Positions 25,648-61,928 of a stretch of DNA of 64,000 nt are shown here, one piece after another. Each line of letters starts with the position of its first letter. Position 1 is the first letter of the stretch. Source of the DNA: an uncultured bacterium (GTDB taxonomy: Bacteria > Patescibacteriota > Dojkabacteria > J137); the NCBI GenBank assembly GCA_963700155.1, contig OY969472.1:744690-808689 (forward strand), in the 5' to 3' direction. A program made the position numbers and the translations under genes. Under the pieces are notes generated by a model, which had not been told where the DNA came from, did no database searches, and worked only from the letters and a program-made list of their open reading frames with translations.

Positions 25648-26063
25648 TTTTCAAGATTGATATAAAGGTAAAATTAATATGTCACTCTAGATTATAAATT
25701 GAATATGGTTTTTATTAAAGTCTTAAGATTTGATAAGTAATATCCTTTTAAAATTGTTCATTTTCTTAATCAGTAAAATAGTTCTATATACTCAAAGTGA
25801 TTATTGGTATGTTATGTTTATGTATCCAAGGAGTATTAAGTTGTTTATCGTAAATGCTATTAAAAATCAATATAGAACATTAAAAATTGATTTTTTAGAT
25901 GTTATTAGTTACAATCATAATAGAGCCTACGCTATCCTCAAAGTTTGGCGACATAGCTAACTCAGGCTCATGTAGGCTTCATGTGAGGTAAAATTCTTGG
26001 GTTTTCTCACTTCCAAGATTGAACTCGCTCTTTAACATATCATTCGTAATTAAATATTGTTTT

Positions 26064-26108
26064 GGTCTCCTCTATTTGTATTTTTTTAAGTATACATAGA
26101 GGAGATCA
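26064..26108 (+). promoter_or_regulatory. 12-bp-stem hairpin (GGTCTCCTCTAT...ATAGAGGAGATC, one G-U) 22 nt upstream of the acquired GT2 gene; RBS GGGAGGG follows
   Basis: I read the inverted repeat directly. It lies at the AT-rich to GC-rich transition. Confidence 0.3.
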
Positions 26109-26129
26109 AAACATTAGGGAGGGAATCCA

Positions 26130-27329
26130 ATGGCAGTAAGACTGATGGAACCCCAAATTCCTTCTCTGAGGGAGTTTGAGGAAGATGAACTTTGGGACTT
26201 GCTCTTCTATGGGCAAGCTCCAAAAAAACCTATAACACCTATCGTAGACTGTATGCTTCCTGCTCATGACGAGGAAGCAAACATCGAGGCAACCGTAGAG
26301 AGTTTGTTTTCACAAACTCTACAACCAAACCGTGTAATTGTTGCTGCAGATAACTGCAGCGACAATACTATCCCGATCCTTGAAAGATTGGTAGATAAAT
26401 ATCGTGGGCGGCTCATTTATTTTGAGACCGTTGATAATTCTGCCAAAAAAGCTGGAGCGCTGAATCAAGCGCTCCAGTACCTTTCACATGAGGCGCAGTA
26501 TGTGCTTCAGATGGATGCAGACACAAAGTTAAGCCCAAACTTGATAGAAGAAGCTATTAAAGAGCTTCGAGCTAATCACAAGTTGGGTGGTGTTTGTTCC
26601 AGGTTCGGAGTATTCCCCTACAAGGGGAAGAATCCATGGCATTGGTTTCTCTGGAAGTTACAGGAAATGGAGTACGCTACAAGCGACTCTAGCCGAGTTG
26701 AAGGCCTTGGGGGTACGAAAGTCCTCTCAGGGGCCGTCGTAGTATTCTGGAGATTTGCTCTTGAGCAAGTGTCGTGGGAACATGGCCTTAGTGAACCAGA
26801 ACAGAAAGATAAGGGAAATGTGTGGTCTGAGAGCACAATTGTCGAAGACTATTCATTGACCCTTGACCTGAAGGAACTTGGATGGAAAGTCCAAGCCGGG
26901 ATGGGCATGATGTCGTGGACCGATACCATGCTGACGTTGTGGGATCTCTGGGATCAGAGGTTCCGCTGGCATTACGGGACTTGGCTCGAGTTGGAGCGAC
27001 GCGGGTGGAATAAGACCACCCGTCACGATATTCTCGAGCTTTGTTTGCATTACTTCATATTGGTGTGCCTTGTGATTTTCTTAGGCACTTTGGTCGCGAT
27101 GGTGATAATTGGGATCCCGATTCAGTTCAACGCGATTGGGCTTTCGGTATTGCTCGTCGCGTGGGCAAATAGGTTGTACCGGTTCTCATATATGAGAGAG
27201 CCAAAATGGTACGATCTATTGATCGCGATCATTTTAATTCCTGAAGAAGTGTATTCTATCTACAGGAATATCAACCTGACCGTGGCTCTTATCCGGAGCT
27301 TGAGGACGAAGTCTCCGCAGAAGTGGTAA
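26130..27329 (+). CDS. Processive family-2 glycosyltransferase (PgaC/NodC/cellulose-synthase-like polysaccharide synthase) in a high-GC acquired segment
   Basis: It has DxD (QMDADTK), the Q(R/Q)xRW motif (DQRFRWHYG), and C-terminal TM helices. It is 399 aa. Local GC is about 50%, against a background of about 30%. Confidence 0.7.
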   Translation: MAVRLMEPQIPSLREFEEDELWDLLFYGQAPKKPITPIVDCMLPAHDEEANIEATVESLFSQTLQPNRVIVAADNCSDNTIPILERLVDKYRGRLIYFETVDNSAKKAGALNQALQYLSHEAQYVLQMDADTKLSPNLIEEAIKELRANHKLGGVCSRFGVFPYKGKNPWHWFLWKLQEMEYATSDSSRVEGLGGTKVLSGAVVVFWRFALEQVSWEHGLSEPEQKDKGNVWSESTIVEDYSLTLDLKELGWKVQAGMGMMSWTDTMLTLWDLWDQRFRWHYGTWLELERRGWNKTTRHDILELCLHYFILVCLVIFLGTLVAMVIIGIPIQFNAIGLSVLLVAWANRLYRFSYMREPKWYDLLIAIILIPEEVYSIYRNINLTVALIRSLRTKSPQKW

Positions 27330-27358
27330 ATGTTCGATAACAGGGAGGTATAACTACC

Positions 27359-27733
27359 ATGAACTACGATCCACCTTTCTTGCCGGTAACCGGAGCAGCT
27401 TTTGCCACTGGTGCTGGCGCATACTTACAATGGACGTGGCCAGTGATCCTGGCTGCGGCTGTTGTGTCGTTTGTAATTCTCGCATTTGGGATGATGCTCT
27501 TGCGACGGAATGAAAGCCGGCTGCTCAAATCCGGTGTCAAGGTTCGTCGCAGTACCCTCCCATACATGATCGGCGGAGTCATCGGCATTGTCGTGGGTAT
27601 CGTCGGCGCGGCGCTTGAATTACCCGCACTTTTCGTGATCCCAGCTATCCTGGTCTCGGTGATCCTCGTCGCGGCGCTGCTTGGGGGCTTTCGCAGCAAT
27701 TTCCCTAAACAGCAGCTCGCCCAAGTCGAATGA
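27359..27733 (+). CDS. Small polytopic membrane protein (124 aa) co-transferred with the GT2 synthase
   Basis: It has several hydrophobic helices and is rich in Gly and Ala. It is GC-rich and is followed by a strong terminator. Confidence 0.5.
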   Translation: MNYDPPFLPVTGAAFATGAGAYLQWTWPVILAAAVVSFVILAFGMMLLRRNESRLLKSGVKVRRSTLPYMIGGVIGIVVGIVGAALELPALFVIPAILVSVILVAALLGGFRSNFPKQQLAQVE

Positions 27734-27743
27734 TGTGTTAGAA

Positions 27744-27773
27744 GGGGGCGGTCCGACGTGTCGGACCGCCCCC
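27744..27773 (+). terminator. GC-rich rho-independent terminator-like hairpin GGGGGCGGTCCGAC..GTCGGACCGCCCCC
   Basis: This is a perfect 14-bp arm (at most 12 bp paired with a real loop). It lies downstream of the 124-aa gene at the GC-to-AT boundary. Confidence 0.6.
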
Positions 27774-27843
27774 TAAAACTTTCTTTTATAAATTCAAAAA
27801 TTTCTACTCTACTATAATCTTGAAATAGGTCGAATATTTTTAT

Positions 27844-29481
27844 TTAATTCTCTTGAGTTGCTTCTGGAGTGCTGAGTATTGCTTGATTATTCCCAATATC
27901 AAATTCAAAAATTGGAACCATTCTAGCTTGAAGTAATGGTGCAATATTTGGATCTACAGGTTCGTCTGCATAAGGCTCAGCACAGTAAAATCCAAGCAAA
28001 TCTCTTACAGGGTCAAGTGGCGGCCCATCATAATCTGAAAACTCGAGGATATCAACCGGCCCTCTTAAACCAGCAGCTTCATCTATAAAAGCTTGATTCA
28101 AAGCTTGGGTTTGTTGTGGGCTGATATAAAATAATCCTATTAATTTACCGTGTTCAGTATTCCCATTTTGAGTTATCGTGAATGGTGCATCTTTATAATA
28201 ATCTCGCCTTATCTTTCCTTCTGCTGAAGTAACATTAGTCCAGGCTAATTGGCTTCCAGTTTCTTCTACGTCTGCTCTTAATGGATCTGCAGGAAATTGG
28301 GACCCGTTTGCTAAATATCCTGAGTGAATAGTTTGAACTAAAACTCCATTATATTGCATCCAAACTGGATTGTCTTGTGCAAAAGGATCTCCAGCTAAAA
28401 AATTATCAGTAGGATTCATTTGTCTAGGATAAATTAGTAAATCAAATTCATTTCTGTTCCAAACTTGAGCAGGCTTTTCTATAACTAATTCAGTTAATGG
28501 ACCTTTCTCAATACCAATAGTCCCAAAGTTAATTGAACCTATATGGAAAGGCACAAAATTTTCTACTTCAAATCTTGGTATGATTGATAAAGTTGTTGGT
28601 CTATTCATTCCAAATAGATTCCAGAATTGTATATCTGGAACTGTAAGATTTGGATCTCTTCTACGATATAATCCAATAAATACATCTCTAAAAGCATTAT
28701 TTAATTGGATAATAAACTCAGGGTTCATAAAGTCTTCTGGAGTATATTTAACTTTACCTCCTGTTAGTATATCTGATGCTAAATTACTCAATATTTGGAA
28801 AGCTTGATCAACTGTAAGGTTAGTTCCAACTCCCTGGATATAATAATCATACGAATTTCCATTAATTCCATGTTCTTCTTTATATGCTTGTTGAATAATT
28901 TCTAAAAAGGCTCTAAAGTTACCGTAAGTGATTTCAGAATATAATTGTTCAGGAGTTTGTATACCTGCAACTTCATTTAAATAGCCATTATTATATAACC
29001 CTGCAGCAACAGCATTATATTGCAACGATTGCAGAAATTCTTCTGCAACTAAACTTTGAGTTACATTACTTAAATGATCCTTCCCAAAAGATATACTGCT
29101 AAACTGAACAGTACCATCTCCGCTCACCTCCATCATCGTAGATCCCCAGCTTCCTCCTCTATTGTGCTCAATATCATAAGTAATTTCATCACTTGTAATA
29201 ATGGGTATTTGGTCAATAAATGCTTCAATTTGAGCATCGCTCATTTCAGGGTGAAATAGCTTGACACTATTATGTATAAAGCTTCTAATTTCAGGATTAT
29301 TAAATGCGTAATTGATTGAGGGATATTGATTATGTGGAATGATAATTGCATCTGGTGATAAAACAATATTTATAGGTGTTGGATCAGCTGGTAAATTTGA
29401 TTGTGCATCAATAGATTGTTGTGAACCAATCCCAAGCATTGATGCTGTTATTGCCAGTGCCGCTAAACTCTTTCTATTCAT
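27844..29481 (-). CDS. Secreted hypothetical protein (545 aa, signal peptide)
   Basis: It has an N-terminal signal peptide (MNRKSLAALAITASMLGIG) and no recognisable catalytic motif. Confidence 0.5.
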   Translation of the reverse strand: MNRKSLAALAITASMLGIGSQQSIDAQSNLPADPTPINIVLSPDAIIIPHNQYPSINYAFNNPEIRSFIHNSVKLFHPEMSDAQIEAFIDQIPIITSDEITYDIEHNRGGSWGSTMMEVSGDGTVQFSSISFGKDHLSNVTQSLVAEEFLQSLQYNAVAAGLYNNGYLNEVAGIQTPEQLYSEITYGNFRAFLEIIQQAYKEEHGINGNSYDYYIQGVGTNLTVDQAFQILSNLASDILTGGKVKYTPEDFMNPEFIIQLNNAFRDVFIGLYRRRDPNLTVPDIQFWNLFGMNRPTTLSIIPRFEVENFVPFHIGSINFGTIGIEKGPLTELVIEKPAQVWNRNEFDLLIYPRQMNPTDNFLAGDPFAQDNPVWMQYNGVLVQTIHSGYLANGSQFPADPLRADVEETGSQLAWTNVTSAEGKIRRDYYKDAPFTITQNGNTEHGKLIGLFYISPQQTQALNQAFIDEAAGLRGPVDILEFSDYDGPPLDPVRDLLGFYCAEPYADEPVDPNIAPLLQARMVPIFEFDIGNNQAILSTPEATQEN

Positions 29482-46862: not shown

Positions 46863-46922
46863 TAGAAAACTGAAAAAGCAAAATTCTTATTGTACTGGTT
46901 AGGGCTTTTATTCTCGGAGTTC

Positions 46923-47909
46923 TTATGTTGGCTTAGGATCTAGCTTTAGTGCAAGTGCAACTATGATACTTCCGTATAACCAGAGCCAGTTTTGAGGCTC
47001 AAGAAGAAAAGGAAGTATTGGGGAGAAAGCACTAGCTTTTGCTAGAAAAGTGTTAGGGAACCAAAGATCGGGTATTAATCCGAAAAATATAGAGAAGCAG
47101 ATTCCCCAAATTGCCCCCCATTTGATTACCTTCCACCACTCTTTTGTTACAAGGATAACTAGTGGTAGAACGAAAATTACACTCGGTTTCATCACTGCTA
47201 GTACACCTAGTAAAGCAGCTAACGTAAAATGTCTACGTTTTGCTGCAATTAGATATCCAGCAACGAGGGCAAAAATCAGCGGTGTCGGCTGCCCAAGCCA
47301 GAATGCTGCTGAGAGTGAATTCCCATGAATTCCAGTCCCAATATCTTCCACAAGCATCCATTGAAACCGAAAATTTGGTTGATCCCAGGGATAACCTCCG
47401 ATTATAGGCAAGATAATCCCAAAGGTTAAAATCACGGCGGCCCAGGTATGTTTGTGGTTGACATTTAATGCAAGCACTAGAGCAATAAAAAGCATTGCCC
47501 CCATATTGATTATACCTGAAACCTCGAACGCATCCTTGAATTCCATAGCTCCCAACGGTGCCATTAGGAGAGCGTGCCATGGTGTATGACCGTAGAAATA
47601 AGTCCCCCAGCCTCCATCATTTTGGATGTATTCACTCCAGAGTTCTGATAAATTTTGTTTTGTTTCAGGAGGTCCAATATAACGATAGACCTCCTCCCAT
47701 TCTCCAGCTCCGGCAAGTTTTCCGGCTTGCCAGAACATTGCAAAATCCGAATCCCAAGGGGGTTTAGGCTGGTTTAACCGATCGAACAAGATCTTGTTCG
47801 CAGTAAATAGAAAAAATAACACTGCGAAGAATAAAACAAGCCAGCGTACGGCTTCCTTTGTTTCTGTCCATATTGAAGCGATCAGTCTGCTAGCTTCTAT
47901 GTTTGCCAT
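46923..47909 (-). CDS. Polytopic integral membrane protein (328 aa), GC-elevated; possibly a GT-C/DUF2029-like glycosyltransferase
   Basis: It has about 8-9 TM helices and a Trp-rich sequence. Local GC is about 45%. The family assignment is speculative. Confidence 0.4.
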   Translation of the reverse strand: MANIEASRLIASIWTETKEAVRWLVLFFAVLFFLFTANKILFDRLNQPKPPWDSDFAMFWQAGKLAGAGEWEEVYRYIGPPETKQNLSELWSEYIQNDGGWGTYFYGHTPWHALLMAPLGAMEFKDAFEVSGIINMGAMLFIALVLALNVNHKHTWAAVILTFGIILPIIGGYPWDQPNFRFQWMLVEDIGTGIHGNSLSAAFWLGQPTPLIFALVAGYLIAAKRRHFTLAALLGVLAVMKPSVIFVLPLVILVTKEWWKVIKWGAIWGICFSIFFGLIPDLWFPNTFLAKASAFSPILPFLLEPQNWLWLYGSIIVALALKLDPKPT

Positions 47910-48140
47910 TTTTATTCTCTCCTGTTAGTTTATGATTGTGAGATGTGAGATTGGTTATCTAATAAGAATTTTAACTTAGTTCAATTTTCAAGGTACTACA
48001 AACTAATACAATAAATTTTTATATCCACAACTTATAAAGATAGTGAAATTAAATTCGTAACAGAACATGCAATTAGTTTGCTATATTAGGATTATATCAT
48101 GGAGATTTAAGTACATTTTTTAATTGGGGTTTAGGTGTTG

Positions 48141-48163
48141 CGGCGGGGAAGAATTCCCCGCCG
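48141..48163 (-). terminator. GC-rich hairpin CGGCGGGG-aagaatt-CCCCGCCG downstream of the 48172 gene
   Basis: I read this directly. It contains GAATTC. Confidence 0.35.
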
Positions 48164-48171
48164 TGTGTAGA

Positions 48172-48477
48172 TTAATTAGCGAGGCGGCGGTATTTTGACC
48201 GACACTGGACTATCTGAATCTTGTGTGTTCTCTGATACTCGTTCAGATTTTCCCACAAGATTTTGAAGTCATCGCTATTTACCGAAAAAACTCTTCCCCT
48301 CCTGAACCGAAAAATTGCAACGGCATCTGGTGGGTAGCTCTTCTTAGGATCATACTTACCTAAATCAGTAAGTGATCCATCCGGAGCTTTAAGAAACCGC
48401 TTCGCCCAAGCCGCATGGGCGTTTTGACGTGCTCTTGCACCTTGTATCGAAGGGTTTCTTGATCTAGTTTTCTTCAT
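48172..48477 (-). CDS. Hypothetical basic protein (101 aa), GC-elevated
   Basis: This is an ORF with the foreign composition typical of this segment. Confidence 0.35.
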   Translation of the reverse strand: MKKTRSRNPSIQGARARQNAHAAWAKRFLKAPDGSLTDLGKYDPKKSYPPDAVAIFRFRRGRVFSVNSDDFKILWENLNEYQRTHKIQIVQCRSKYRRLAN

Positions 48478-48587
48478 TTCTAGATAGCCTTTTGTAAATC
48501 TGCACTATACTAAATATATCATCACTATATATATTTTGTCATTTTAATATTATCATCTAAATTTTGAGAATTGTTATTGTAGCGTTC

Positions 48588-48612
48588 GCGGCTCGGGTTT
48601 CACCCGAGCCGC
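48588..48612 (-). terminator. GC-rich hairpin GCGGCTCGGG-tttca-CCCGAGCCGC
   Basis: I read this directly. It lies 15 nt downstream of the 48627 gene stop. Confidence 0.4.
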
Positions 48613-48626
48613 TTTCCGCTCTTTAA

Positions 48627-49208
48627 CTACCTGATAGGTTCTATCTTTGTGACCCAGCCAGTGCTGTTGTTGATATACAACGAGTACTGGAAATTCGGGT
48701 TCAAGCTTATCCATTGATCATAGCTTGTCCCAAATGAATAGATTTTCTCGTCTTGATCGATGAACTGAACTGTATATTGACCTGATCTTCCAGACTCTCT
48801 TTCTTCTGGGTCTACAGAGAGGACGACCTCACCATAGTAAGGCGACCTTCCAAATCCATTGCTGGATACTGTTCTGGTATGATGCCAGCCCAATATCTCG
48901 AAATGGTAGTTTGTTTCGATCCCTGGGCGAAAATGCCCGAAATAGGTAATATCGAATGTAGTTTTAGGCGTATATGTCTTACTTTGATTTCGACTTCCTT
49001 GGGGGAATCCTGTCGTATTTGAGTCAGGATACCAGCTGTACTCCTCTATCTCAACTTTTTGAGTCCAGAGGAACTTATAGATGTTTGCCTTAATCTGTTG
49101 GTCTGAGGTACTCCAGACTGTGAATACAATCACCCCAATTAACATGGCGATTATTATTAGACAGCCTACGGCATCAGATATAGTACTCGCACTCTTTTTA
49201 TCATTCAT
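48627..49208 (-). CDS. Hypothetical N-terminally anchored protein (193 aa), GC-elevated
   Basis: It has an N-terminal TM and no recognisable motif. Confidence 0.4.
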   Translation of the reverse strand: MNDKKSASTISDAVGCLIIIAMLIGVIVFTVWSTSDQQIKANIYKFLWTQKVEIEEYSWYPDSNTTGFPQGSRNQSKTYTPKTTFDITYFGHFRPGIETNYHFEILGWHHTRTVSSNGFGRSPYYGEVVLSVDPEERESGRSGQYTVQFIDQDEKIYSFGTSYDQWISLNPNFQYSLYINNSTGWVTKIEPIR

Positions 49209-49369: not shown

Positions 49370-50026
49370 TTATTCTTTTTCTATGAGTGTTTTTTTGTTT
49401 TCTTTAGAACTGTTCACTTCTTTACTTACCTTGTAAGAAACCATTTCTTTGGAAGGGTAAGGTTTGAGCATACTTTTTAAAGTGTCGAGATCTTTAATTT
49501 CTGAATTCAGCCAGACTTCTTCGAACTTTTTAGGTAAAATAACAGGCATTCGATCATGAACTTGCTTTACTAAACTATTTGCCGCACAAGTAATGATTGT
49601 AAAAGTTCTTATGTTTGCTCCTTTTTCATTCTTCCAATCATCATAAATACCTGCAAAAGAGAAAATATCTCTGTCCTTCAATCTAAATAAGTAAGGTTGT
49701 CTACTCTTTCCTTCTTTTGCCCATTCATAAAAGAAACTTGCAGGAATCAAACATCTTTTATTAAATAAACTGAGTCTATAAGAAGGTTTTGTTTCTATTT
49801 CCTCTGCTCTAGCATTTATCATTTTAAAACCAATCTTTGAATCCTTTGCCCAATGCGGAATAAATCCCCACTGCATAAATTCAAGATCAATTTTATCTTT
49901 CATAATTACAACAGGAACTTTCTTTGAAGGCGCAATGTTATAGTCATCTTGAACAAGTAAATCTATTGGCAGATTATAATATTTACTTAAACCATTTTCT
50001 GTTACTAATCCGAATCGTCCGCACAT
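49370..50026 (-). CDS. yedK: SOS response-associated peptidase (SRAP/YedK family, abasic-site DNA-protein crosslink protein)
   Basis: It starts with the invariant MCGRF. It is 218 aa. Confidence 0.8.
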   Translation of the reverse strand: MCGRFGLVTENGLSKYYNLPIDLLVQDDYNIAPSKKVPVVIMKDKIDLEFMQWGFIPHWAKDSKIGFKMINARAEEIETKPSYRLSLFNKRCLIPASFFYEWAKEGKSRQPYLFRLKDRDIFSFAGIYDDWKNEKGANIRTFTIITCAANSLVKQVHDRMPVILPKKFEEVWLNSEIKDLDTLKSMLKPYPSKEMVSYKVSKEVNSSKENKKTLIEKE

Positions 50027-50063
50027 ATTAAAAATTTTTATATAATTTATTTTAACATTTCAT

Positions 50064-51371
50064 TTAGATCTTTATTTTTAACAATTCCTGCCAGCTTGTT
50101 GTAAATCTCTGAGATTTTCTTTCTTGTTTCATCATCCAATTTTTTCTCATCCCCTGACTACCCATCTTTATAGTATTACTTCCCCACTTTAAATTAATCT
50201 TATCAAAAACATTCATTATTTTAGTTTCCCGCTTATCTATTGCTTCTTCTAAAATTGGACTAGTAAATAAATGTAATTGTTTGTGACTCTGTGGCTCTAT
50301 TCCAGATAACATTACTCCTGCCCTTTTAAACTTATATCCATCTTTAAAAATAGTTTTTAAACCATGCAAAGCAGCTTTAGTTAGTGTCGGTAAATATGAG
50401 CTTGGCGGATCAAGTTCAAGTGTTATTGAATTATAATATTGAGGATCTTTTTGATTAAAAAGACTTGTATGAATAAATATTGTTACTAATTTTGCTAAGG
50501 AGTTTTGTTCTCTGAGTTTTTCACTTGCGATTGATACATAAAGTGAAATAGCTTCAATTAAGTCTGCTATTTTGGTGACGGGGATTCCGAATGATCTTGT
50601 ACTTGCAATAATTTTTTTAGGTTCTGGTGCATTATCTATTGGAATACAGGAAATACCATGTAATTCCAAGTATGTTCTTTCTCCTTGAACTGTCATTTTT
50701 TTTCTTACGACATATCTATTAAAATACTTAAAATCTTTTGCAGTATATATTCCATTCATTCTTAAAAATTTAGTGTATTGACGTCCAACACCCCAAATAT
50801 CTTCAACATCTACTTTCTTAAGATAATCATCAATATTATTAATTTCAAATTCATTCAGTACACCATTGAATTCAGGAGTTTTTTTTACAATTTTATTCAA
50901 AGCCTTTGCTAAAGTTTTTGTTGATGCAATTCCGATTGAAATTGGAATACCTGTGCTCTGAAATACTTTCTCTCTTATTTTTCTACAATATTCTGTAAGA
51001 TTATTTATCTTAAGGTTTGTGAAGTTTAGGAAGGCTTCATCTATAGAATAAAGTTCTATATCGGGTGTGAACTCGTTTAAAATTCCCATTACACGCATTG
51101 AGAGATCTGCATACAAAGTGAAGTTAGATGAATAAACAAATACCATTCCGCTATTGATAAGATTTTTGAGTTCGAAAAAAGGCTGACCCATTTTGATTCC
51201 TAATTTTTTAGCTTCGTTTGATCTTGCAATTACACATCCGTCATTATTTGAAAGAACAATAACAGGTTTCCCATTGAGTTTGGGGTTAAAAAGCCTTTCA
51301 CATGAGGCGTAAAAATTGTTGCAGTCAACAATAGCGAATATTTTTTTCTTTGAATAATTTGAGAGGTCCAT
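50064..51371 (-). CDS. Y-family translesion DNA polymerase (DinB/UmuC-like)
   Basis: The N-terminus reads IFAIVDCNNFYASCERLFNPKLNGKPVIVLSNNDGCVIARSNEAKKLGIKMGQP. It is 435 aa. Confidence 0.8.
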   Translation of the reverse strand: MDLSNYSKKKIFAIVDCNNFYASCERLFNPKLNGKPVIVLSNNDGCVIARSNEAKKLGIKMGQPFFELKNLINSGMVFVYSSNFTLYADLSMRVMGILNEFTPDIELYSIDEAFLNFTNLKINNLTEYCRKIREKVFQSTGIPISIGIASTKTLAKALNKIVKKTPEFNGVLNEFEINNIDDYLKKVDVEDIWGVGRQYTKFLRMNGIYTAKDFKYFNRYVVRKKMTVQGERTYLELHGISCIPIDNAPEPKKIIASTRSFGIPVTKIADLIEAISLYVSIASEKLREQNSLAKLVTIFIHTSLFNQKDPQYYNSITLELDPPSSYLPTLTKAALHGLKTIFKDGYKFKRAGVMLSGIEPQSHKQLHLFTSPILEEAIDKRETKIMNVFDKINLKWGSNTIKMGSQGMRKNWMMKQERKSQRFTTSWQELLKIKI

Positions 51372-51436
51372 TAATTAAAGGATAGTCGAAGGGTTACTGG
51401 TTTAGTCAAGTTATAAATGAAGGAATATGGTGATAA

Positions 51437-51535
51437 ATGTCAAAGTATCCAGAATCGAAGAATTTTATTTTAGTATTGAATGAATTGGATAAGAGAGTAA
51501 GAAGATTACCTAATTGTAAAATCCCATCTAACTAA
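51437..51535 (+). CDS. Small ORF (32 aa, MSKYPESKNFILVLNELDKRVRRLPNCKIPSN) inside repeat copy R1
   Basis: It is one of three homologous ~120-bp copies. I cannot distinguish a small protein from an RNA or DNA repeat on sequence alone. Confidence 0.3.
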   Translation: MSKYPESKNFILVLNELDKRVRRLPNCKIPSN

Positions 51536-51850
51536 TAACCTCAGATCCATGGGGACCTTTGATGGCTAACTTTATATGGATCCCCCCTTTTGGACACTCC
51601 GTCAGGATGATGTCGTAGTACGTATCGTACCTTTCAGCAAAGAAGTTCATAACTCTCTGTGACACTGATGAGATCACTTCAAAAGCGTCTTTCAGTTGCA
51701 TTTTTCACCCCTACATTATGCATTCGCGTTAACGATAGAGGATTATACTAGATTTGAGGGGGATTGTTAGTTTTAATAGGTTAGGATCTCCCTATGTATA
51801 CTTGTTAATAACTATATACCAGTGATATAATATATTGTGAAGCATATTCC

Positions 51851-52252
51851 ATGGAGGAAGTTAAAATGTTGAACTGGCTGATTAAGTATTTTGCGGTAAA
51901 GACAAAGTCTTTTGACAAGTTCATGAGCTTTGTCGGAACAGATCGCCCTAAGGAAATCAAGGCGATTCCGGTTGAGTATGTAGATAAACCCCTGCCCTTA
52001 AACGGCGCAGGTTTGATCGGCGATGGGGGACACGGGTTGATGATGCAATTCGTGAACTCCGATGGGCGAAAGGTACAGTTCTGGGAGCGATTCAAAGGGA
52101 GAGAGGTGATTTCACACCGAGGACTCGTCACTCCGTCGTCTGCGGCAAGGTGGGAGTCTTTTACTGAGACGGAAATCGAAGAGAAGTTTGATCTCCTCCG
52201 ACAGAAGTTTCCGCGGTTGGTCACTCGAATGGTGACTACCGACGAACTCTGA
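51851..52252 (+). CDS. Hypothetical protein (133 aa) in a GC-elevated segment
   Basis: The ORF has protein-like composition and is followed by two hairpins (52265-52291 and 52350-52370). The overlapping antisense ORF is judged spurious. Confidence 0.4.
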   Translation: MEEVKMLNWLIKYFAVKTKSFDKFMSFVGTDRPKEIKAIPVEYVDKPLPLNGAGLIGDGGHGLMMQFVNSDGRKVQFWERFKGREVISHRGLVTPSSAARWESFTETEIEEKFDLLRQKFPRLVTRMVTTDEL

Positions 52253-52264
52253 AGAATATGCTGA

Positions 52265-52291
52265 GCAGAGGGCAGTTATACTGCCCTCTGC
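52265..52291 (+). terminator. Perfect 11-bp hairpin GCAGAGGGCAG-ttata-CTGCCCTCTGC 13 nt after the stop of the 51851 gene
   Basis: I read this directly. Confidence 0.45.
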
Positions 52292-52349
52292 AAAGCGAAA
52301 CTTCAATAATGAAATTTAAATTTTGTGTTGAATAATATCATTTAGGGTC

Positions 52350-52370
52350 AGAACAGGTCTGTTCTTTTTA
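52350..52370 (+). terminator. Hairpin AGAACAG-gt-CTGTTCT followed by TTTTTA
   Basis: I read this directly. It has the classic intrinsic terminator shape. Confidence 0.45.
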
Positions 52371-52654
52371 ATAATCACCTCTTAAATTATGAGTAATAAT
52401 AAAGATTTATCTGGTGTGTCTGTAGATATAGGTGAAGGATTGCTTACTATTTCTGAATTAGTCTCTTCAGATAAACTGGCAAATTCCATGGTATTGTAGA
52501 TCTTCAAGAATTTAATTCTATTGCATTTAAATATGATGATTGAGGTATTGAAATTAGAAACATTAATGGAATTAATTATGTTTTTTACTCTAGTTCTAGT
52601 TCATGATTTACGTGATTTGTAATATTTTTAGATAAGAGAATTAGAAGAATTCCT

Positions 52655-53179
52655 TTAAAGAATCTTAAGGGTTGAAAATTCTTTTTCTATAATCCATTTA
52701 TGATCATCTTCGTTTTCAAGTTTTTTGAGAATAGTAATGTTGTCAAATGGTAATGTGAATTTTTCTTTTTCGAATTGGTTTAAATAATTTTCAATATCTT
52801 CAATTTGCTCAGGTTTTGCACGTATGGTTATTGTTAAATGAAAATTTCTATCTGGTAAATCAAATTCATCCCATTGAAGCCAATCTATTTCCTTTAATAT
52901 TTTGAAAAATTTGAGATAGATTGTTTTAGTTCTATCATTTAATTTGACATCAAGGAAAAAAACTCGTTGTCTAAAGTTGCCAATTCCACCAATTTCTACC
53001 TCTGCTCCTTCGAAATTAGTTTCTTTTACAAACTTTTCAATGAGTGCTTCAATCGGTTTGATGTTATCAGTGTAAATATTATCTTTTAAAGTTATATGGC
53101 TTGGTGTTTGAATTGCGAAGATACTAAACTTTTCTGAAACTTTACCTTTAACTCGAAACCCGATTATGAATCGTTCCAT
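52655..53179 (-). CDS. 2H phosphoesterase superfamily protein (LigT/ThpR-like)
   Basis: It has two H-x-T-x motifs (SHITL and FHLTITI) about 90 aa apart. It is 174 aa. Confidence 0.45.
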   Translation of the reverse strand: MERFIIGFRVKGKVSEKFSIFAIQTPSHITLKDNIYTDNIKPIEALIEKFVKETNFEGAEVEIGGIGNFRQRVFFLDVKLNDRTKTIYLKFFKILKEIDWLQWDEFDLPDRNFHLTITIRAKPEQIEDIENYLNQFEKEKFTLPFDNITILKKLENEDDHKWIIEKEFSTLKIL

Positions 53180-53190
53180 AATTATTATAT

Positions 53191-53688
53191 TTAAACACTA
53201 GAAATATTCTTTAACATGGTTATTTCATAATCATTAAACCCTATATCTTTATACAGTTTGGTTGCAGTATTGTTTGAAAGGACGGTTAATTTTAAGTATT
53301 TGATATTATGTTGTCTTGCAAATTCTTGAGCTTTGGTTAATAGTAGTTTTCCGATTCCTTTATTTCTAAAATCTTTAGTGACGATTATATCTGAAATAAA
53401 AACAACAGGAATCTTATTGAACATCTGGATATAGTTTTTGATATCAATATTAAATGCTATGAAGCCTATTATCTGATTATCCAATTCTGCTACATAAATT
53501 TCTCCTCTATCCTCATTTAAAGGGGTAATAATTTCTTTGAAGGTAGCTTCTTGAGCTTCGTGATTGGTTTTTAGATCATTGTCTAATTTATTCTCGTGTT
53601 CTTTTAATTCTTGAATCAGTTTTCTTACTGAGTTTTCATCTAGATCTTGATAAGGTCGTATTAAAATATTCATGGAATAATTATACAT
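53191..53688 (-). CDS. GNAT-family N-acetyltransferase
   Basis: It has motif A RNKGIGKLLL and is 165 aa. Confidence 0.65.
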   Translation of the reverse strand: MYNYSMNILIRPYQDLDENSVRKLIQELKEHENKLDNDLKTNHEAQEATFKEIITPLNEDRGEIYVAELDNQIIGFIAFNIDIKNYIQMFNKIPVVFISDIIVTKDFRNKGIGKLLLTKAQEFARQHNIKYLKLTVLSNNTATKLYKDIGFNDYEITMLKNISSV

Positions 53689-53720
53689 CGACTTGTTGAA
53701 ATGGGTAATAATGGTACGAG

Positions 53721-53816
53721 ATGTCGAAGTATCCGGAACCGAGAAATTTGGTTTTAGTATTAAAAGATTTAAATAAGGAAATTAGAAGAGTTCCAATTTC
53801 AAATTTTGCACAATAA
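53721..53816 (+). CDS. Small ORF (31 aa, MSKYPEPRNLVLVLKDLNKEIRRVPISNFAQ) inside repeat copy R2
   Basis: It is homologous to 51437-51535, and the homology extends about 40 nt upstream of the ATG. Confidence 0.3.
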   Translation: MSKYPEPRNLVLVLKDLNKEIRRVPISNFAQ

Positions 53817-53818
53817 GT

Positions 53819-54259
53819 TTAAGCAGCAGTCATTTCTCTGATATATTCAACAAATTCTAAGTTACGATAGAACCTTGTATCAGAATGTGTTGCATTCAAC
53901 TGAGTTGCTAGTTCCAGGGCATTTTGAAAATCATCTGAAAGACCAGTTAAAGTATATTTATCTGGATATTTAGCAGCTAGAGCAATTATTACATGCGCTA
54001 GTAAATATATATCTTGATATGCTGTAATTAAACCTTCCTGTCCTGTTGATTCCATTATACTGTTTTGTCCAAATATAGTAGCTATAATTACTGATATATC
54101 TTCTTTATGTAGAATCTTCGCTAAGTATGGATCTAAAGATAAAATTTCAATTACAGAAGTAACAAGTTTATTAATTAATATTTTTTTCTCAGGATTTCTT
54201 ATAAGGGTTCTTATAGCTGCCATAAGATCTTGATCTGAAAAATCTGCAAATTCGTTCAT
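53819..54259 (-). CDS. Hypothetical protein (146 aa)
   Basis: This is an ORF with no recognisable motif. Confidence 0.4.
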   Translation of the reverse strand: MNEFADFSDQDLMAAIRTLIRNPEKKILINKLVTSVIEILSLDPYLAKILHKEDISVIIATIFGQNSIMESTGQEGLITAYQDIYLLAHVIIALAAKYPDKYTLTGLSDDFQNALELATQLNATHSDTRFYRNLEFVEYIREMTAA

Positions 54260-54333
54260 AATAAATAGTAAAAATATTTAGATTTTGTGGATTATACTAT
54301 TGGGGGAATTTATTAGCAAGTTTCATATGGTGA

Positions 54334-54450
54334 GACGGGGTTCTTTACCCAGAAGCCTACTTTAACTTCTAGAAACGAATTTAATCTCGTTTTTGTAATT
54401 CCTGATATTGACAAGCAAATTAGGAGGGTTCCGATGAGGAAAATATTTTA
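54334..54450 (+). repeat. Degenerate third copy (R3) of the small-ORF repeat; no start codon in frame
   Basis: It encodes ...YPEAYLTSRNEFNLVFVIPDIDKQIRRVPMRKIF*, homologous to R1/R2 but with indels. Confidence 0.3.
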
Positions 54451-54520
54451 AGTGTTGCAGGGCTCCTCCATTTTCCCGCAACAACTATAAGATTAATGCG
54501 GTGGGCGGAGCCCTTTGCAG

Positions 54521-54763
54521 TCAAGACTTCAAGAGCTTTTTGAGTTCTTCATGTGCTTGCTTGCGCTCGGTTTCAGTATCCCCGTGCTCTGATAGAAAAA
54601 CGAGGATACGGATACGATTGTTCCAATAGAGATTTTTGCTAAGATTCTGGATATTGCCAGCTATCCCCAGCACTATCCATAGAATAATGACGAGAGCTAT
54701 AGCTATTGTTGCAGCATCAGCTGGGTGCTGAACTGCAAATTGTAACAGTATCATTGCAACCAC
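54521..54763 (-). CDS. Small membrane protein (80 aa), GC-elevated
   Basis: It has one TM helix and is GC-elevated. Confidence 0.35.
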   Translation of the reverse strand: MVAMILLQFAVQHPADAATIAIALVIILWIVLGIAGNIQNLSKNLYWNNRIRILVFLSEHGDTETERKQAHEELKKLLKS

Positions 54764-54861
54764 CTCTCATTTTTAACCGATTGATATTATTATATCATGA
54801 ATATATAAGGTATAGCTACACTCCAATCGAGGGTTGTAATTATTCTCGGTACTAATAAAAG

Positions 54862-54934
54862 TGCCAGGGGGCAGACTCGGACTGCCGACACCTCGCTCTT
54901 CAGGCGAGTGCTCTACCAGCTGAGCTACCCTAGC
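54862..54934 (-). tRNA. tRNA-Phe (anticodon GAA) with atypical T-loop (T54-C55-C56)
   Basis: I folded the cloverleaf by hand. The acceptor is GCTAGGG/CCCTGGC (one G-U), the anticodon loop is CTGAAGA, and the T-arm is GGCAG-TCCGAGT-CTGCC. No CCA is encoded. Confidence 0.65.
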
Positions 54935-55063
54935 ACAATGAAAGTTACTGGTACTTTAAGTTTTTAAAGCTCTACTCCCACAACGGGACTAAGATCTTCT
55001 TTTGCTCGACTTCACTTGGTTTGTCTTGCAAAGAATCTCTCGAGCAGCTTCGCTACCCTAGCA
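54935..55063 (-). repeat. tRNA-linked conserved element, copy B (~128 nt) immediately upstream of tRNA-Phe(GAA); distal end duplicates tRNA-Phe nt 1-19 (2 mismatches)
   Basis: It is homologous to 35414..35542. The segment GCTACCCTAGCA duplicates the tRNA 5' end. Confidence 0.55.
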
Positions 55064-55118
55064 TAAAAGTGAGCAGGATAATTATAAATGATGAAGCACT
55101 AAACAGCAAGGCTTTATC

Positions 55119-60668: not shown

Positions 60669-61928
60669 ATGAAATTAAGATTTAGCAATATGGAATTTAA
60701 ACTAAATTCAAAATTTAAACCATCTGGAGACCAGCCTCAAGCAATTGAATACCTTACCGCTGGGCTTGAGGCTGGTCTCAGACATCAAACATTAATCGGA
60801 GCTACAGGAACGGGAAAAACTTTTACAATGGCTAATATTATTCAGAATACAGGAAGGCCTGCTCTCGTTTTGTCCCACAACAAAACGCTCGCAGCTCAAT
60901 TGTACGCAGAGTTCAAAGAGTTTTTCCCGGAAAATGCAGTTGAATATTTTGTAAGTTACTACGATTATTATCAGCCTGAAGCTTATGTTCCTCAAAGAGA
61001 CTTATATATTGAGAAAGATTCAGATATTAACGAAGTTGTTGAAAAGTTTAGAAATAGCGCAACTCAGGAGTTGCTTTCAAGAAGAGATGTTGTAATTGTG
61101 GCAACTGTAAGTTGTATTTATGGACTTGGCGATCCTGAAGACTACTCAGCTCTTAGTCTACAGCTTAAGGTTGGTAAAGAATATAGCCGAGAAAAAATTA
61201 TGGTCAGATTAAGAGATATGCAATACGATAGAAATGATTCAGATTTTGCAAATGGAACTTTTAGGTTTAGAGGTGAATATATTGATATTAATCTAACAAC
61301 AGCTGATGATAGAGCTGTTAGGCTTTCATTTTTTGGAGATGAACTTGAATCAATAAGAATTTTGAATCCAATAAGTGGAGAAATTATTGGTGAACAAGAT
61401 GAAATTCAGATCTTTCCTGCAAAGCATTATGTAAGTTCTCAGGAAAAAATTAACAATGCCTTGAAAGTTATTCGTGAAGATCTAGAAGTTGAAGTTAAGG
61501 ATTTTATGGATAAAGGAAAAATGATTGAAGGTACAAGATTAAAGCAGCGTGTAAATTATGATTTAGAAATGCTTCAGGAAACAGGCTTTTGTAAAGGAAT
61601 TGAGAATTATTCAAGATATATTGATAATCGGGGAGTTGGTACAGCTCCTTCTACTCTTTTAGATTATTTCCCTGATGATTACCTAATGTTTATTGATGAA
61701 TCACACATTACTGTTCCCCAAATTGGAGGAATGTATCTTGGTGATTTATCTAGGAAACAAAACTTGGTTGACTATGGATTCAGAATGAAATCAGCTTTAG
61801 ATAATAGACCTCTAAAATTTGATGAGTTCCAGAAAAGAACGAATCAGATTATCTATACTACTGCGACACCAAGAGAATACGAAATTGAAAACTCAAAAAA
61901 ATCTGCAAAAGAAGTTTTAGGAAAATAA
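60669..61928 (+). CDS. uvrB: UvrB N-terminal portion (419 aa; ends exactly where helicase domain 3 should begin) - truncated gene / probable pseudogene
   Basis: It has Walker A GATGTGKT, YDYYQPEAY and the beta-hairpin region, ending ...IIYTTATPREYEIENSKK*. No domain-3 sequence appears in any downstream frame. Confidence 0.6.
   Translation: MKLRFSNMEFKLNSKFKPSGDQPQAIEYLTAGLEAGLRHQTLIGATGTGKTFTMANIIQNTGRPALVLSHNKTLAAQLYAEFKEFFPENAVEYFVSYYDYYQPEAYVPQRDLYIEKDSDINEVVEKFRNSATQELLSRRDVVIVATVSCIYGLGDPEDYSALSLQLKVGKEYSREKIMVRLRDMQYDRNDSDFANGTFRFRGEYIDINLTTADDRAVRLSFFGDELESIRILNPISGEIIGEQDEIQIFPAKHYVSSQEKINNALKVIREDLEVEVKDFMDKGKMIEGTRLKQRVNYDLEMLQETGFCKGIENYSRYIDNRGVGTAPSTLLDYFPDDYLMFIDESHITVPQIGGMYLGDLSRKQNLVDYGFRMKSALDNRPLKFDEFQKRTNQIIYTTATPREYEIENSKKSAKEVLGK

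Follow-up and report, generated by a model that had tools for sequence, protein, structure and literature searches.

A putative small-protein gene family, intact in two of its four clustered copies, in an accessory region of an uncultured Dojkabacteria genome

Type I toxins of the Ibs, Ldr and TisB type are encoded by short open reading frames (ORFs) present in several intergenic copies, in some cases beside an SOS-type operon. The Rickettsia palindromic elements are selfish repeats that encode peptides, and SpoVM is a small protein forming an amphipathic helix. On a broader scale, families of small ORFs (smORFs, <50 amino acids, aa) have been delimited by comparative genomics, as in a survey of the human microbiome (bioRxiv 10.1101/494179) and in the GMSC catalogue (PMC11364881). 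Here we describe a family of very short ORFs in a stretch of 64,000 nucleotides (nt), hereafter the window, from an uncultured bacterium of the Dojkabacteria (Patescibacteriota; GenBank assembly GCA_963700155.1, contig OY969472.1, positions 744,690 to 808,689 of the forward strand). The window is part of a contig of 1,140,724 bp with a GC content of about 30%. The family comprises four copies within about 3 kb, all of them on the plus strand; R1 and R2 are intact, and R3 and R4 are decayed.

As judged from their sequences, the copies are probably paralogues of an unannotated, lineage-restricted small-protein gene, and we are rather confident that they are, or recently were, a protein-coding small-gene family. 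The closest known kind is that of the conserved bacterial small-protein families, and nothing in the data points to a new kind of system. As in the smORF families, the genes are unannotated, span 31–45 codons, carry no known domain, lie in an accessory region and show both conservation across genomes and purifying selection. More than one ORF retains its start and stop codons (R1, R2 and P0003, a protein found elsewhere), the homologue P0003 stems from an independent genome, and the selection is seen in the proposed frame alone. On the other hand, the family departs from the described ones by its extreme rarity, with one outside member in 1.84 billion proteins and none in three collections scanned with peptide patterns, and by the clustering of four paralogues in 3 kb. 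Within the collections searched, it is in this sense a new and very rare family.

R1 (51437..51535) is an intact ORF of 32 aa, MSKYPESKNFILVLNELDKRVRRLPNCKIPSN, with an ATG start and a TAA stop. It is divergent from a UmuC-like polymerase gene whose start lies at 51371, 65 nt away, and cannot be longer because in-frame stops (TGA, TAA) stand immediately upstream. R2 (53721..53816; 31 aa, MSKYPEPRNLVLVLKDLNKEIRRVPISNFAQ; also ATG to TAA) is divergent from a GNAT gene, and 2 nt separate its end from the stop codon of a convergent 146-aa gene. Both are absent from the recorded gene calls, and both intact genes were missed by the annotation pipelines. The two share 73% identity over 89 nt in an ungapped alignment (blastn E 6e-10, tblastn E 2.5e-8), and their tails are related in DNA, shifted by one base relative to each other. 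R3 (54326..54451) is of a longer form, YGETGFFTQKPTLTSRNEFNLVFVIPDIDKQIRRVPMRKIF followed by a stop, and has no in-frame start codon: neither ATG, GTG nor TTG occurs in its frame after the in-frame TAG at 54311-54313, and it is probably a recent pseudogene. Its similarity to R2 is not significant with blastn (E 0.3) but is with tblastn (E 1.6e-4; against R1, tblastn E 2e-3); R3 is a true but remote relative, significant as protein and not as DNA, and the family as a whole is more alike in its peptides than in its DNA. The coordinates and translations of R1 and R2 are exactly as given in a preliminary description of this DNA, with which the start-less nature of R3 and the position of the copies, all on the plus strand and between or divergent from minus-strand genes, also agree. 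The same text had counted three copies; these are real, yet the total is four, a frame-shifted one having been overlooked. This R4 (52581..52675) overlaps the 3' end of a 2H-phosphoesterase gene and is split over two frames, the first reading FFTLVLVHDLRDL and a stop (52581-52622) and the second FVIFLDKRIRRIPLKNLKG and a stop (52616-52675), the latter ending in ...LDKRIRRIPLKNLKG and a stop. It carries LDKRIRRIP at 52628-52654 (tblastn) and is detected with hmmsearch at E 1.5e-3. No further copy was found in the window outside 51.4-54.5 kb with nhmmer, tblastn or a peptide profile run on six-frame translations. Chance similarity among the copies is ruled out by the alignments, the blastn and tblastn E-values and the permutation test described below.

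The way in which the copies differ is that of translated sequences. The differences at codon positions 1, 2 and 3 are distributed as 6/2/11 between R1 and R2, 6/1/9 between R2 and R3 and 8/2/11 between R1 and R3. The ratio of non-synonymous to synonymous substitution rates (dN/dS, Nei-Gojobori), whose computation across copies the preliminary description had proposed, ranges from 0.19 to 0.32: 0.27 for R1-R2, 0.25 for R2-R3, 0.32 for R1-R3, and 0.19 for R3 against P0003, where 10 synonymous differences fall on 22 sites and 10 non-synonymous ones on 83. In a permutation test, the same number of changes was placed at random and the resulting peptides were scored by BLOSUM (20,000 trials); an equal or better score was obtained with p values of 5e-5 for R1-R2, 5e-5 for R2-R3 and 7.5e-4 for R3 against the P0003 contig, and in 0 of 20,000 trials for R1-R3. 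In this AT-rich DNA, random mutation sets of equal size bring a stop codon in 57-82% of cases. Stops occur in both other frames, in which the codon-position bias is reversed. A conserved alternative frame had been proposed for the upstream part (MV...), and selection on it is ruled out by R1-R2 differences of 10/6/2 at codon positions 1/2/3 and by the stops inside it; its apparent conservation is a by-product of the DNA similarity. Thus, in the lineages that separate R1, R2, R3 and P0003, the peptide frame has been subject to purifying selection, a clear protein-level signal recoverable from four or five very short copies. Copies in which the ORF is broken while the DNA stays conserved had been named as the pattern that would speak against a small protein; that pattern is seen only weakly, since the two broken copies, R3 and R4, have also diverged the furthest in DNA, which is what one expects of paralogues in decay. 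The synonymous divergence (dS) between copies is 0.6-1.5, so they are old, and no recent burst of duplication has taken place. They would derive from an old local duplication or from co-acquisition with accessory genes, R3 and R4 being in decay.

An exhaustive HMMER search of 1.84 billion (1.84e9) representative proteins returned exactly one match, the 45-aa P0003 (E 2.2e-5). It is encoded on a 1.1-kb contig, L002, from sequencing run SRR22742745, a run cited by a study of Antarctic Peninsula soil metagenomes (PMC11677454). P0003 is a called ORF flanked on one side by a GT4 glycosyltransferase gene and on the other by an unknown gene, the three sharing one strand, and the ATG of P0003 overlaps the stop codon of the glycosyltransferase gene (ATGTTAG), an arrangement which, on the sequence of L002, suggests translational coupling. 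P0003 is the closest relative of R3, with 81% DNA identity over 106 nt; the homology is confined to the interior of the ORF and the flanks are unrelated to the window. The family thus exists in two lengths, 31-32 aa in the short form (R1, R2 and the decayed R4) and about 45 aa in the long form (the decayed R3 and the intact P0003), the latter with an extra segment of about 14 residues. Both share the conserved core N-[LF]-[VI]-x-V-x-x-[DE]-[LI]-[DN]-K-x-[IV]-R-R-[VL]-P, after which the tails, put at 5-7 residues, vary freely and are unconserved (NCKIPSN, ISNFAQ, MRKIF, KTQL). All five copies, P0003 included, stop 4-7 codons after the RRxP position, and because every copy does so, the short length of the ORF is ancestral and not the result of truncation.

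Other searches with the peptides gave no relatives. There was no Pfam match at E≤10, and the best hit of a PDB profile search (E 0.21) is spurious; a known protein domain, including ribbon-helix-helix or antitoxin folds, finds no significant profile match in either. A word-indexed protein search with a 46-column alignment found nothing; its index evidently leaves out proteins this short, as it missed P0003 too. Peptide patterns scanned against genome, metagenome and viral contig collections gave no confirmed match, the source genome itself being outside the genome collection, and diverged relatives would escape these scans because the patterns allow only residues already observed. Likewise, no match to phage or plasmid records came from tblastn with the peptides.

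The peptides are basic and hydrophilic, with an isoelectric point (pI) of 9.9-10.1, a grand average of hydropathy (GRAVY) of -0.45 to -0.84, a longest hydrophobic run of 5 residues and a hydrophobic moment of 0.8-0.9; a five-residue hydrophobic patch is followed by a charged segment. In an AlphaFold2 model of R1 of moderate confidence, residues 6-22 form a single helix, with a predicted local distance difference test score (pLDDT) of 83 in the core block. The product would then be a soluble, basic peptide (pI about 10) with one predicted amphipathic helix, which might work through a bound partner, be it a protein, a nucleic acid or a membrane surface, rather than as an enzyme or a pore; it is this combination of basic, hydrophilic character, high hydrophobic moment and single predicted helix that leads us to picture a binding or modulating micro-protein, although our confidence in the proposed mode of action is low. 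The resemblance to SpoVM (about 30 residues, basic, one predicted amphipathic helix) would be one of physical type only, as there is no sequence similarity. The position of R1 beside UmuC-like and SRAP genes recalls the type I toxins, from which the family differs in lacking a transmembrane segment (best 15-residue Kyte-Doolittle mean 0.2-0.5, vs 2.6 for TisB) and any evident antisense RNA gene; a type I toxin finds no support, the GRAVY being negative and the longest hydrophobic run 5 residues. If functional, the family would be another conserved micro-protein among the small proteins of uncultured bacteria with small genomes, a complement that is largely unannotated.

The sequence upstream of the intact copies had been described as homologous over about 40 nt. 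The similarity proved weaker: it is contiguous over the 10 nt before the ATG and includes a short AAATG motif about 22 nt upstream, and the R1-R2 blastn alignment begins at the ATG itself. The shared motif (R1, 51415..51436, plus strand, AAATGAAGGAATATGGTGATAA; R2, 53699..53720, plus strand, GAAATGGGTAATAATGGTACGAG) may be promoter-like or start-region-like. In R2, an AATAAT hexamer ends 8 nt before the ATG, and R1 has GAATAT at the same place. Among the 42 long ORFs of the window, a Shine-Dalgarno-like motif (GGAG/GAGG/AGGA) stands upstream of only five, and in the zone 0-11 nt before start codons TATAAT-like hexamers occur at about double their frequency farther away, which suggests a genome poor in Shine-Dalgarno sites and perhaps rich in leaderless mRNAs. 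Each intact copy could have its own transcription start, set by a -10-like box that precedes the ATG by 5-9 nt, a layout common among the native genes, and on these sequence features expression of R1 and R2 is plausible. The contig L003, which holds the closest relative of the UmuC-SRAP pair (syntenic; 79% aa and 72% nt identity), ends 82 nt upstream of UmuC, and its reverse complement ends with ...TAAATAATTTAATATGGTAGTA, resembling the R1 upstream motif TAAAT-N5-AATATGGT. The R1 motif is probably present in L003. The likeness of the contig end to this motif is suggestive of R1 having kept its position since the divergence from L003, but no more than suggestive, because these terminal bases are placed differently by the automatic alignment.

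Several points weigh against a small-protein gene family. Intact copies amount to two of the four in the window; a single outside homologue is at hand, and matches to families, structures and the literature are none. The AlphaFold2 model was built on 3 sequences, with a mean pLDDT of 71 and a predicted template modelling score (pTM) of 0.31. The expression signals of R1 and R2 are limited to the -10-like hexamers near the ATG, and a promoter scan of the region gave no more promoter-like sites than were found in shuffled sequences, with weak consensus matches. The shared orientation of the four copies at gene-block junctions is not accounted for. Between R3 and L002, a 45-nt stretch has only 2 differences, an unusual degree of conservation at synonymous sites which hints at an extra, nucleotide-level constraint outside the explanation given by a protein. 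Furthermore, with so few and such short sequences the selection is not assignable to one lineage, and the copies seen today could be recent relics, as R3 and R4 clearly are: remaining 5' pieces or dead paralogues of a once functional gene, which inherited their coding signature and have no present function. The lack of a start codon in R3, the frameshift in R4, the mutually frame-shifted tails of R1 and R2, the silence of the gene callers on both and the fact that pairwise dN/dS is blind to which lineage felt selection would all fit such remains. We nevertheless consider this unlikely, as R1 and R2 retain their ATG and stop codons and have MSKYPE in common, encoded with two synonymous differences, at a dS of about 0.8 and under mutation loads that at random bring a stop in most cases; the length of the ORF is conserved in all copies, and the upstream motif is apparently conserved in the 72%-identical relative L003. 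Another explanation places the function in the nucleic acid, as a portable promoter or 5' module, as a small RNA, or through transcription that runs convergently into, or antisense to, the 3' ends of adjacent minus-strand genes, with the peptide as secondary. It draws on the ends of the ORFs, which abut or overlap convergent genes with no room for terminators, on the shared upstream motif, and on a short AU/GU hairpin found repeatedly within the ORFs, where one pair looks compensatory, besides the 2 differences in 45 nt between R3 and L002. We give it only a slim chance, however, since the substitution pattern is that of the translated frame and the ORF on L002 is co-directional with its neighbours, so that an antisense role is not general. 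A structured RNA finds no support: only the tRNA matched Rfam at E≤1, the RNAalifold consensus energies are -2.9 and -0.2 kcal/mol (both strands examined), and the z-scores of single-sequence folds (+1.0 to -1.7) are not significant.

The preliminary description had left a small protein, an RNA and a miniature mobile repeat as open readings, and the last of these fares no better than the second. No terminal or internal inverted repeats and no palindromic core were found within or flanking the copies, no copy lies elsewhere in the 64-kb window, and R3 is detectable only as protein, which leads us to reject a mobile repeat of the miniature inverted-repeat transposable element (MITE) or repetitive extragenic palindromic (REP) type. 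With the Rickettsia palindromic elements the copies have in common a repeat of about 100-150 bp readable as a peptide; unlike those, they are not palindromic, not inserted in-frame in host genes, absent from the rest of the 64 kb and conserved at the protein level. The small-protein reading is thus favoured over an RNA or a mobile repeat because of the lack of Rfam matches, conserved RNA fold, terminal inverted repeats and integrase. Neither does it seem at all likely that the repeats are DNA-level junction elements, marking or serving a recombination that stacks accessory blocks beside tRNA-Phe in the manner of a cassette array, with the ORF incidental or carried along. The direct orientation of four copies within 3.1 kb, each at a gene-block boundary, invites this view, and so do the GC-rich, Shine-Dalgarno-bearing, foreign-looking DNA that begins right after the R1 and R3 stop codons, the tRNA-Phe gene 410 nt beyond R3, and the R3-type copy in an unrelated context on L002. 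As in integron attC arrays, the direct repeats stand between unrelated accessory genes, each just 3' of a minus-strand block; in contrast to them, there is no imperfect palindrome, inverted repeat or attC-type hairpin, no IntI-type integrase nearby (no integrase or recombinase domain in the 20 ORFs scanned, namely most long ORFs of 39.7-59.2 kb and three elsewhere), and a divergence of coding type. In addition, the sequences after R1 and R3 share nothing, and the copies are old and have diverged in a codon-aware manner, instead of being homogenised as active sites would be. The small genes themselves might also be landmarks of a recombinase-independent or as yet unseen gene capture by which foreign blocks are stacked next to tRNA-Phe in bacteria with small genomes, one copy being brought or used by each block captured. 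This idea is highly improbable in our view; if true, it would explain the uniform orientation, the position at block junctions, the GC-rich DNA after R1 and R3 and the R3-type copy elsewhere. Unless the link to block junctions proves mechanistic, a wider question is neither opened nor settled by the family. Finally, the conserved N-terminal part could be read as a leader of 25-40 residues, and the completely different tails as hypervariable cores of 5-7 residues, of precursors of ribosomally synthesised and post-translationally modified peptides (RiPPs), with several paralogues at one locus, a GNAT gene beside R2 and a glycosyltransferase gene beside P0003. We regard this as extremely improbable: no maturation enzyme (radical SAM, YcaO, LanM, ATP-grasp), protease or exporter was recognised in the neighbourhood, the neighbours differ for every copy (UmuC-like polymerase, SRAP, 2H phosphoesterase, GNAT, orphans), and the difference between the tails of R1 and R2 is a 1-nt frameshift, and so reflects relaxed constraint rather than diversifying selection.

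As for the setting of this putative small-protein family, the window contains ordinary chromosomal genes (RecG, MutL, MurA, a class-A penicillin-binding protein, a threonyl-tRNA synthetase-like protein) together with numerous orphan genes. Around the copies, the minus strand carries SRAP (49370-50026) and the UmuC-like polymerase (50064-51371) ahead of R1, the 2H phosphoesterase (52655-53179) and the GNAT protein (53191-53688) between R4 and R2, and the orphan 146-aa gene (53819-54259) between R2 and R3. For the GNAT gene, the probable start is 53673, preceded by TGTATAAT, and not 53688. A GC-rich block with ORFs of 57 and 133 aa (51540-52300) separates R1 from R4, and another, with an ORF of 80 aa, lies between R3 and tRNA-Phe (54861-54934, minus strand). 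The nearest named homologues of the UmuC-like polymerase, at about 50% identity, are from Patescibacteria and other uncultured bacteria. The 146-aa gene is a complete orphan, without homologues at E≤1e-3 among 5.8 billion protein clusters; tblastn of the 133-aa protein against phage and plasmid records gave no match, and PHROGs and NCBIfam searches of the neighbouring genes were uninformative.

The UmuC-like and SRAP genes form an operon (49370-51371, minus strand) that lacks a UmuD (Peptidase_S24) gene. UmuD lies directly upstream in the UmuC relatives L005-L007 (about 50% identity), and in the distant UmuC loci L004-L007 (about 50% identity) UmuD is present instead and copies of the family are absent. 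In L003, with its 79%-identical UmuC, the UmuC-SRAP pair is kept, and a type I restriction-modification system and a Fic gene follow downstream. A link of the family to SOS or UmuD was considered and found unsupported.

Within the copies, the AU/GU hairpin has the form AGAAACGA-N8-UCGUUUUU in R3 (54371-54415; 723-767 in L002), where synonymous sites have changed less than elsewhere in the ORF, and GGAACCGA-N5-UUGGUUUU in R2 (53735-53755). Blocks of 40-53% GC, against a background of about 29%, were observed at 26000-28000, 46900-47900, 48100-49200, 51540-52300 and 54400-54860. In contrast to the native genes, those at 26130, 46923 and 48627 inside the blocks have strong Shine-Dalgarno motifs, and the blocks look like recent acquisitions from donors using such motifs. 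Behind the 133-aa gene stands a perfect GC-rich hairpin of 12 bp (52263-52292; minimum free energy -32 kcal/mol, z -7.8), not followed by a U-tract. Between the R3 stop codon and the 3' end of the 80-aa ORF, a structured GC-rich segment (54455-54520; z -2.8 on the plus and -3.5 on the minus strand) may be a two-way terminator. Beyond tRNA-Phe, a 28-nt stretch (55039-55066) with 82% identity to the 5' part of this gene (54911-54938), and without a tRNA call by ARAGORN or Rfam, may be a tRNA remnant. Further away, a UvrB-like ORF (60669-61928, plus strand; 419 aa) has the N-terminal domains only (ResIII, UvrB_inter) and is followed by ORFs on the opposite strand, and the gene is for these reasons truncated or split.

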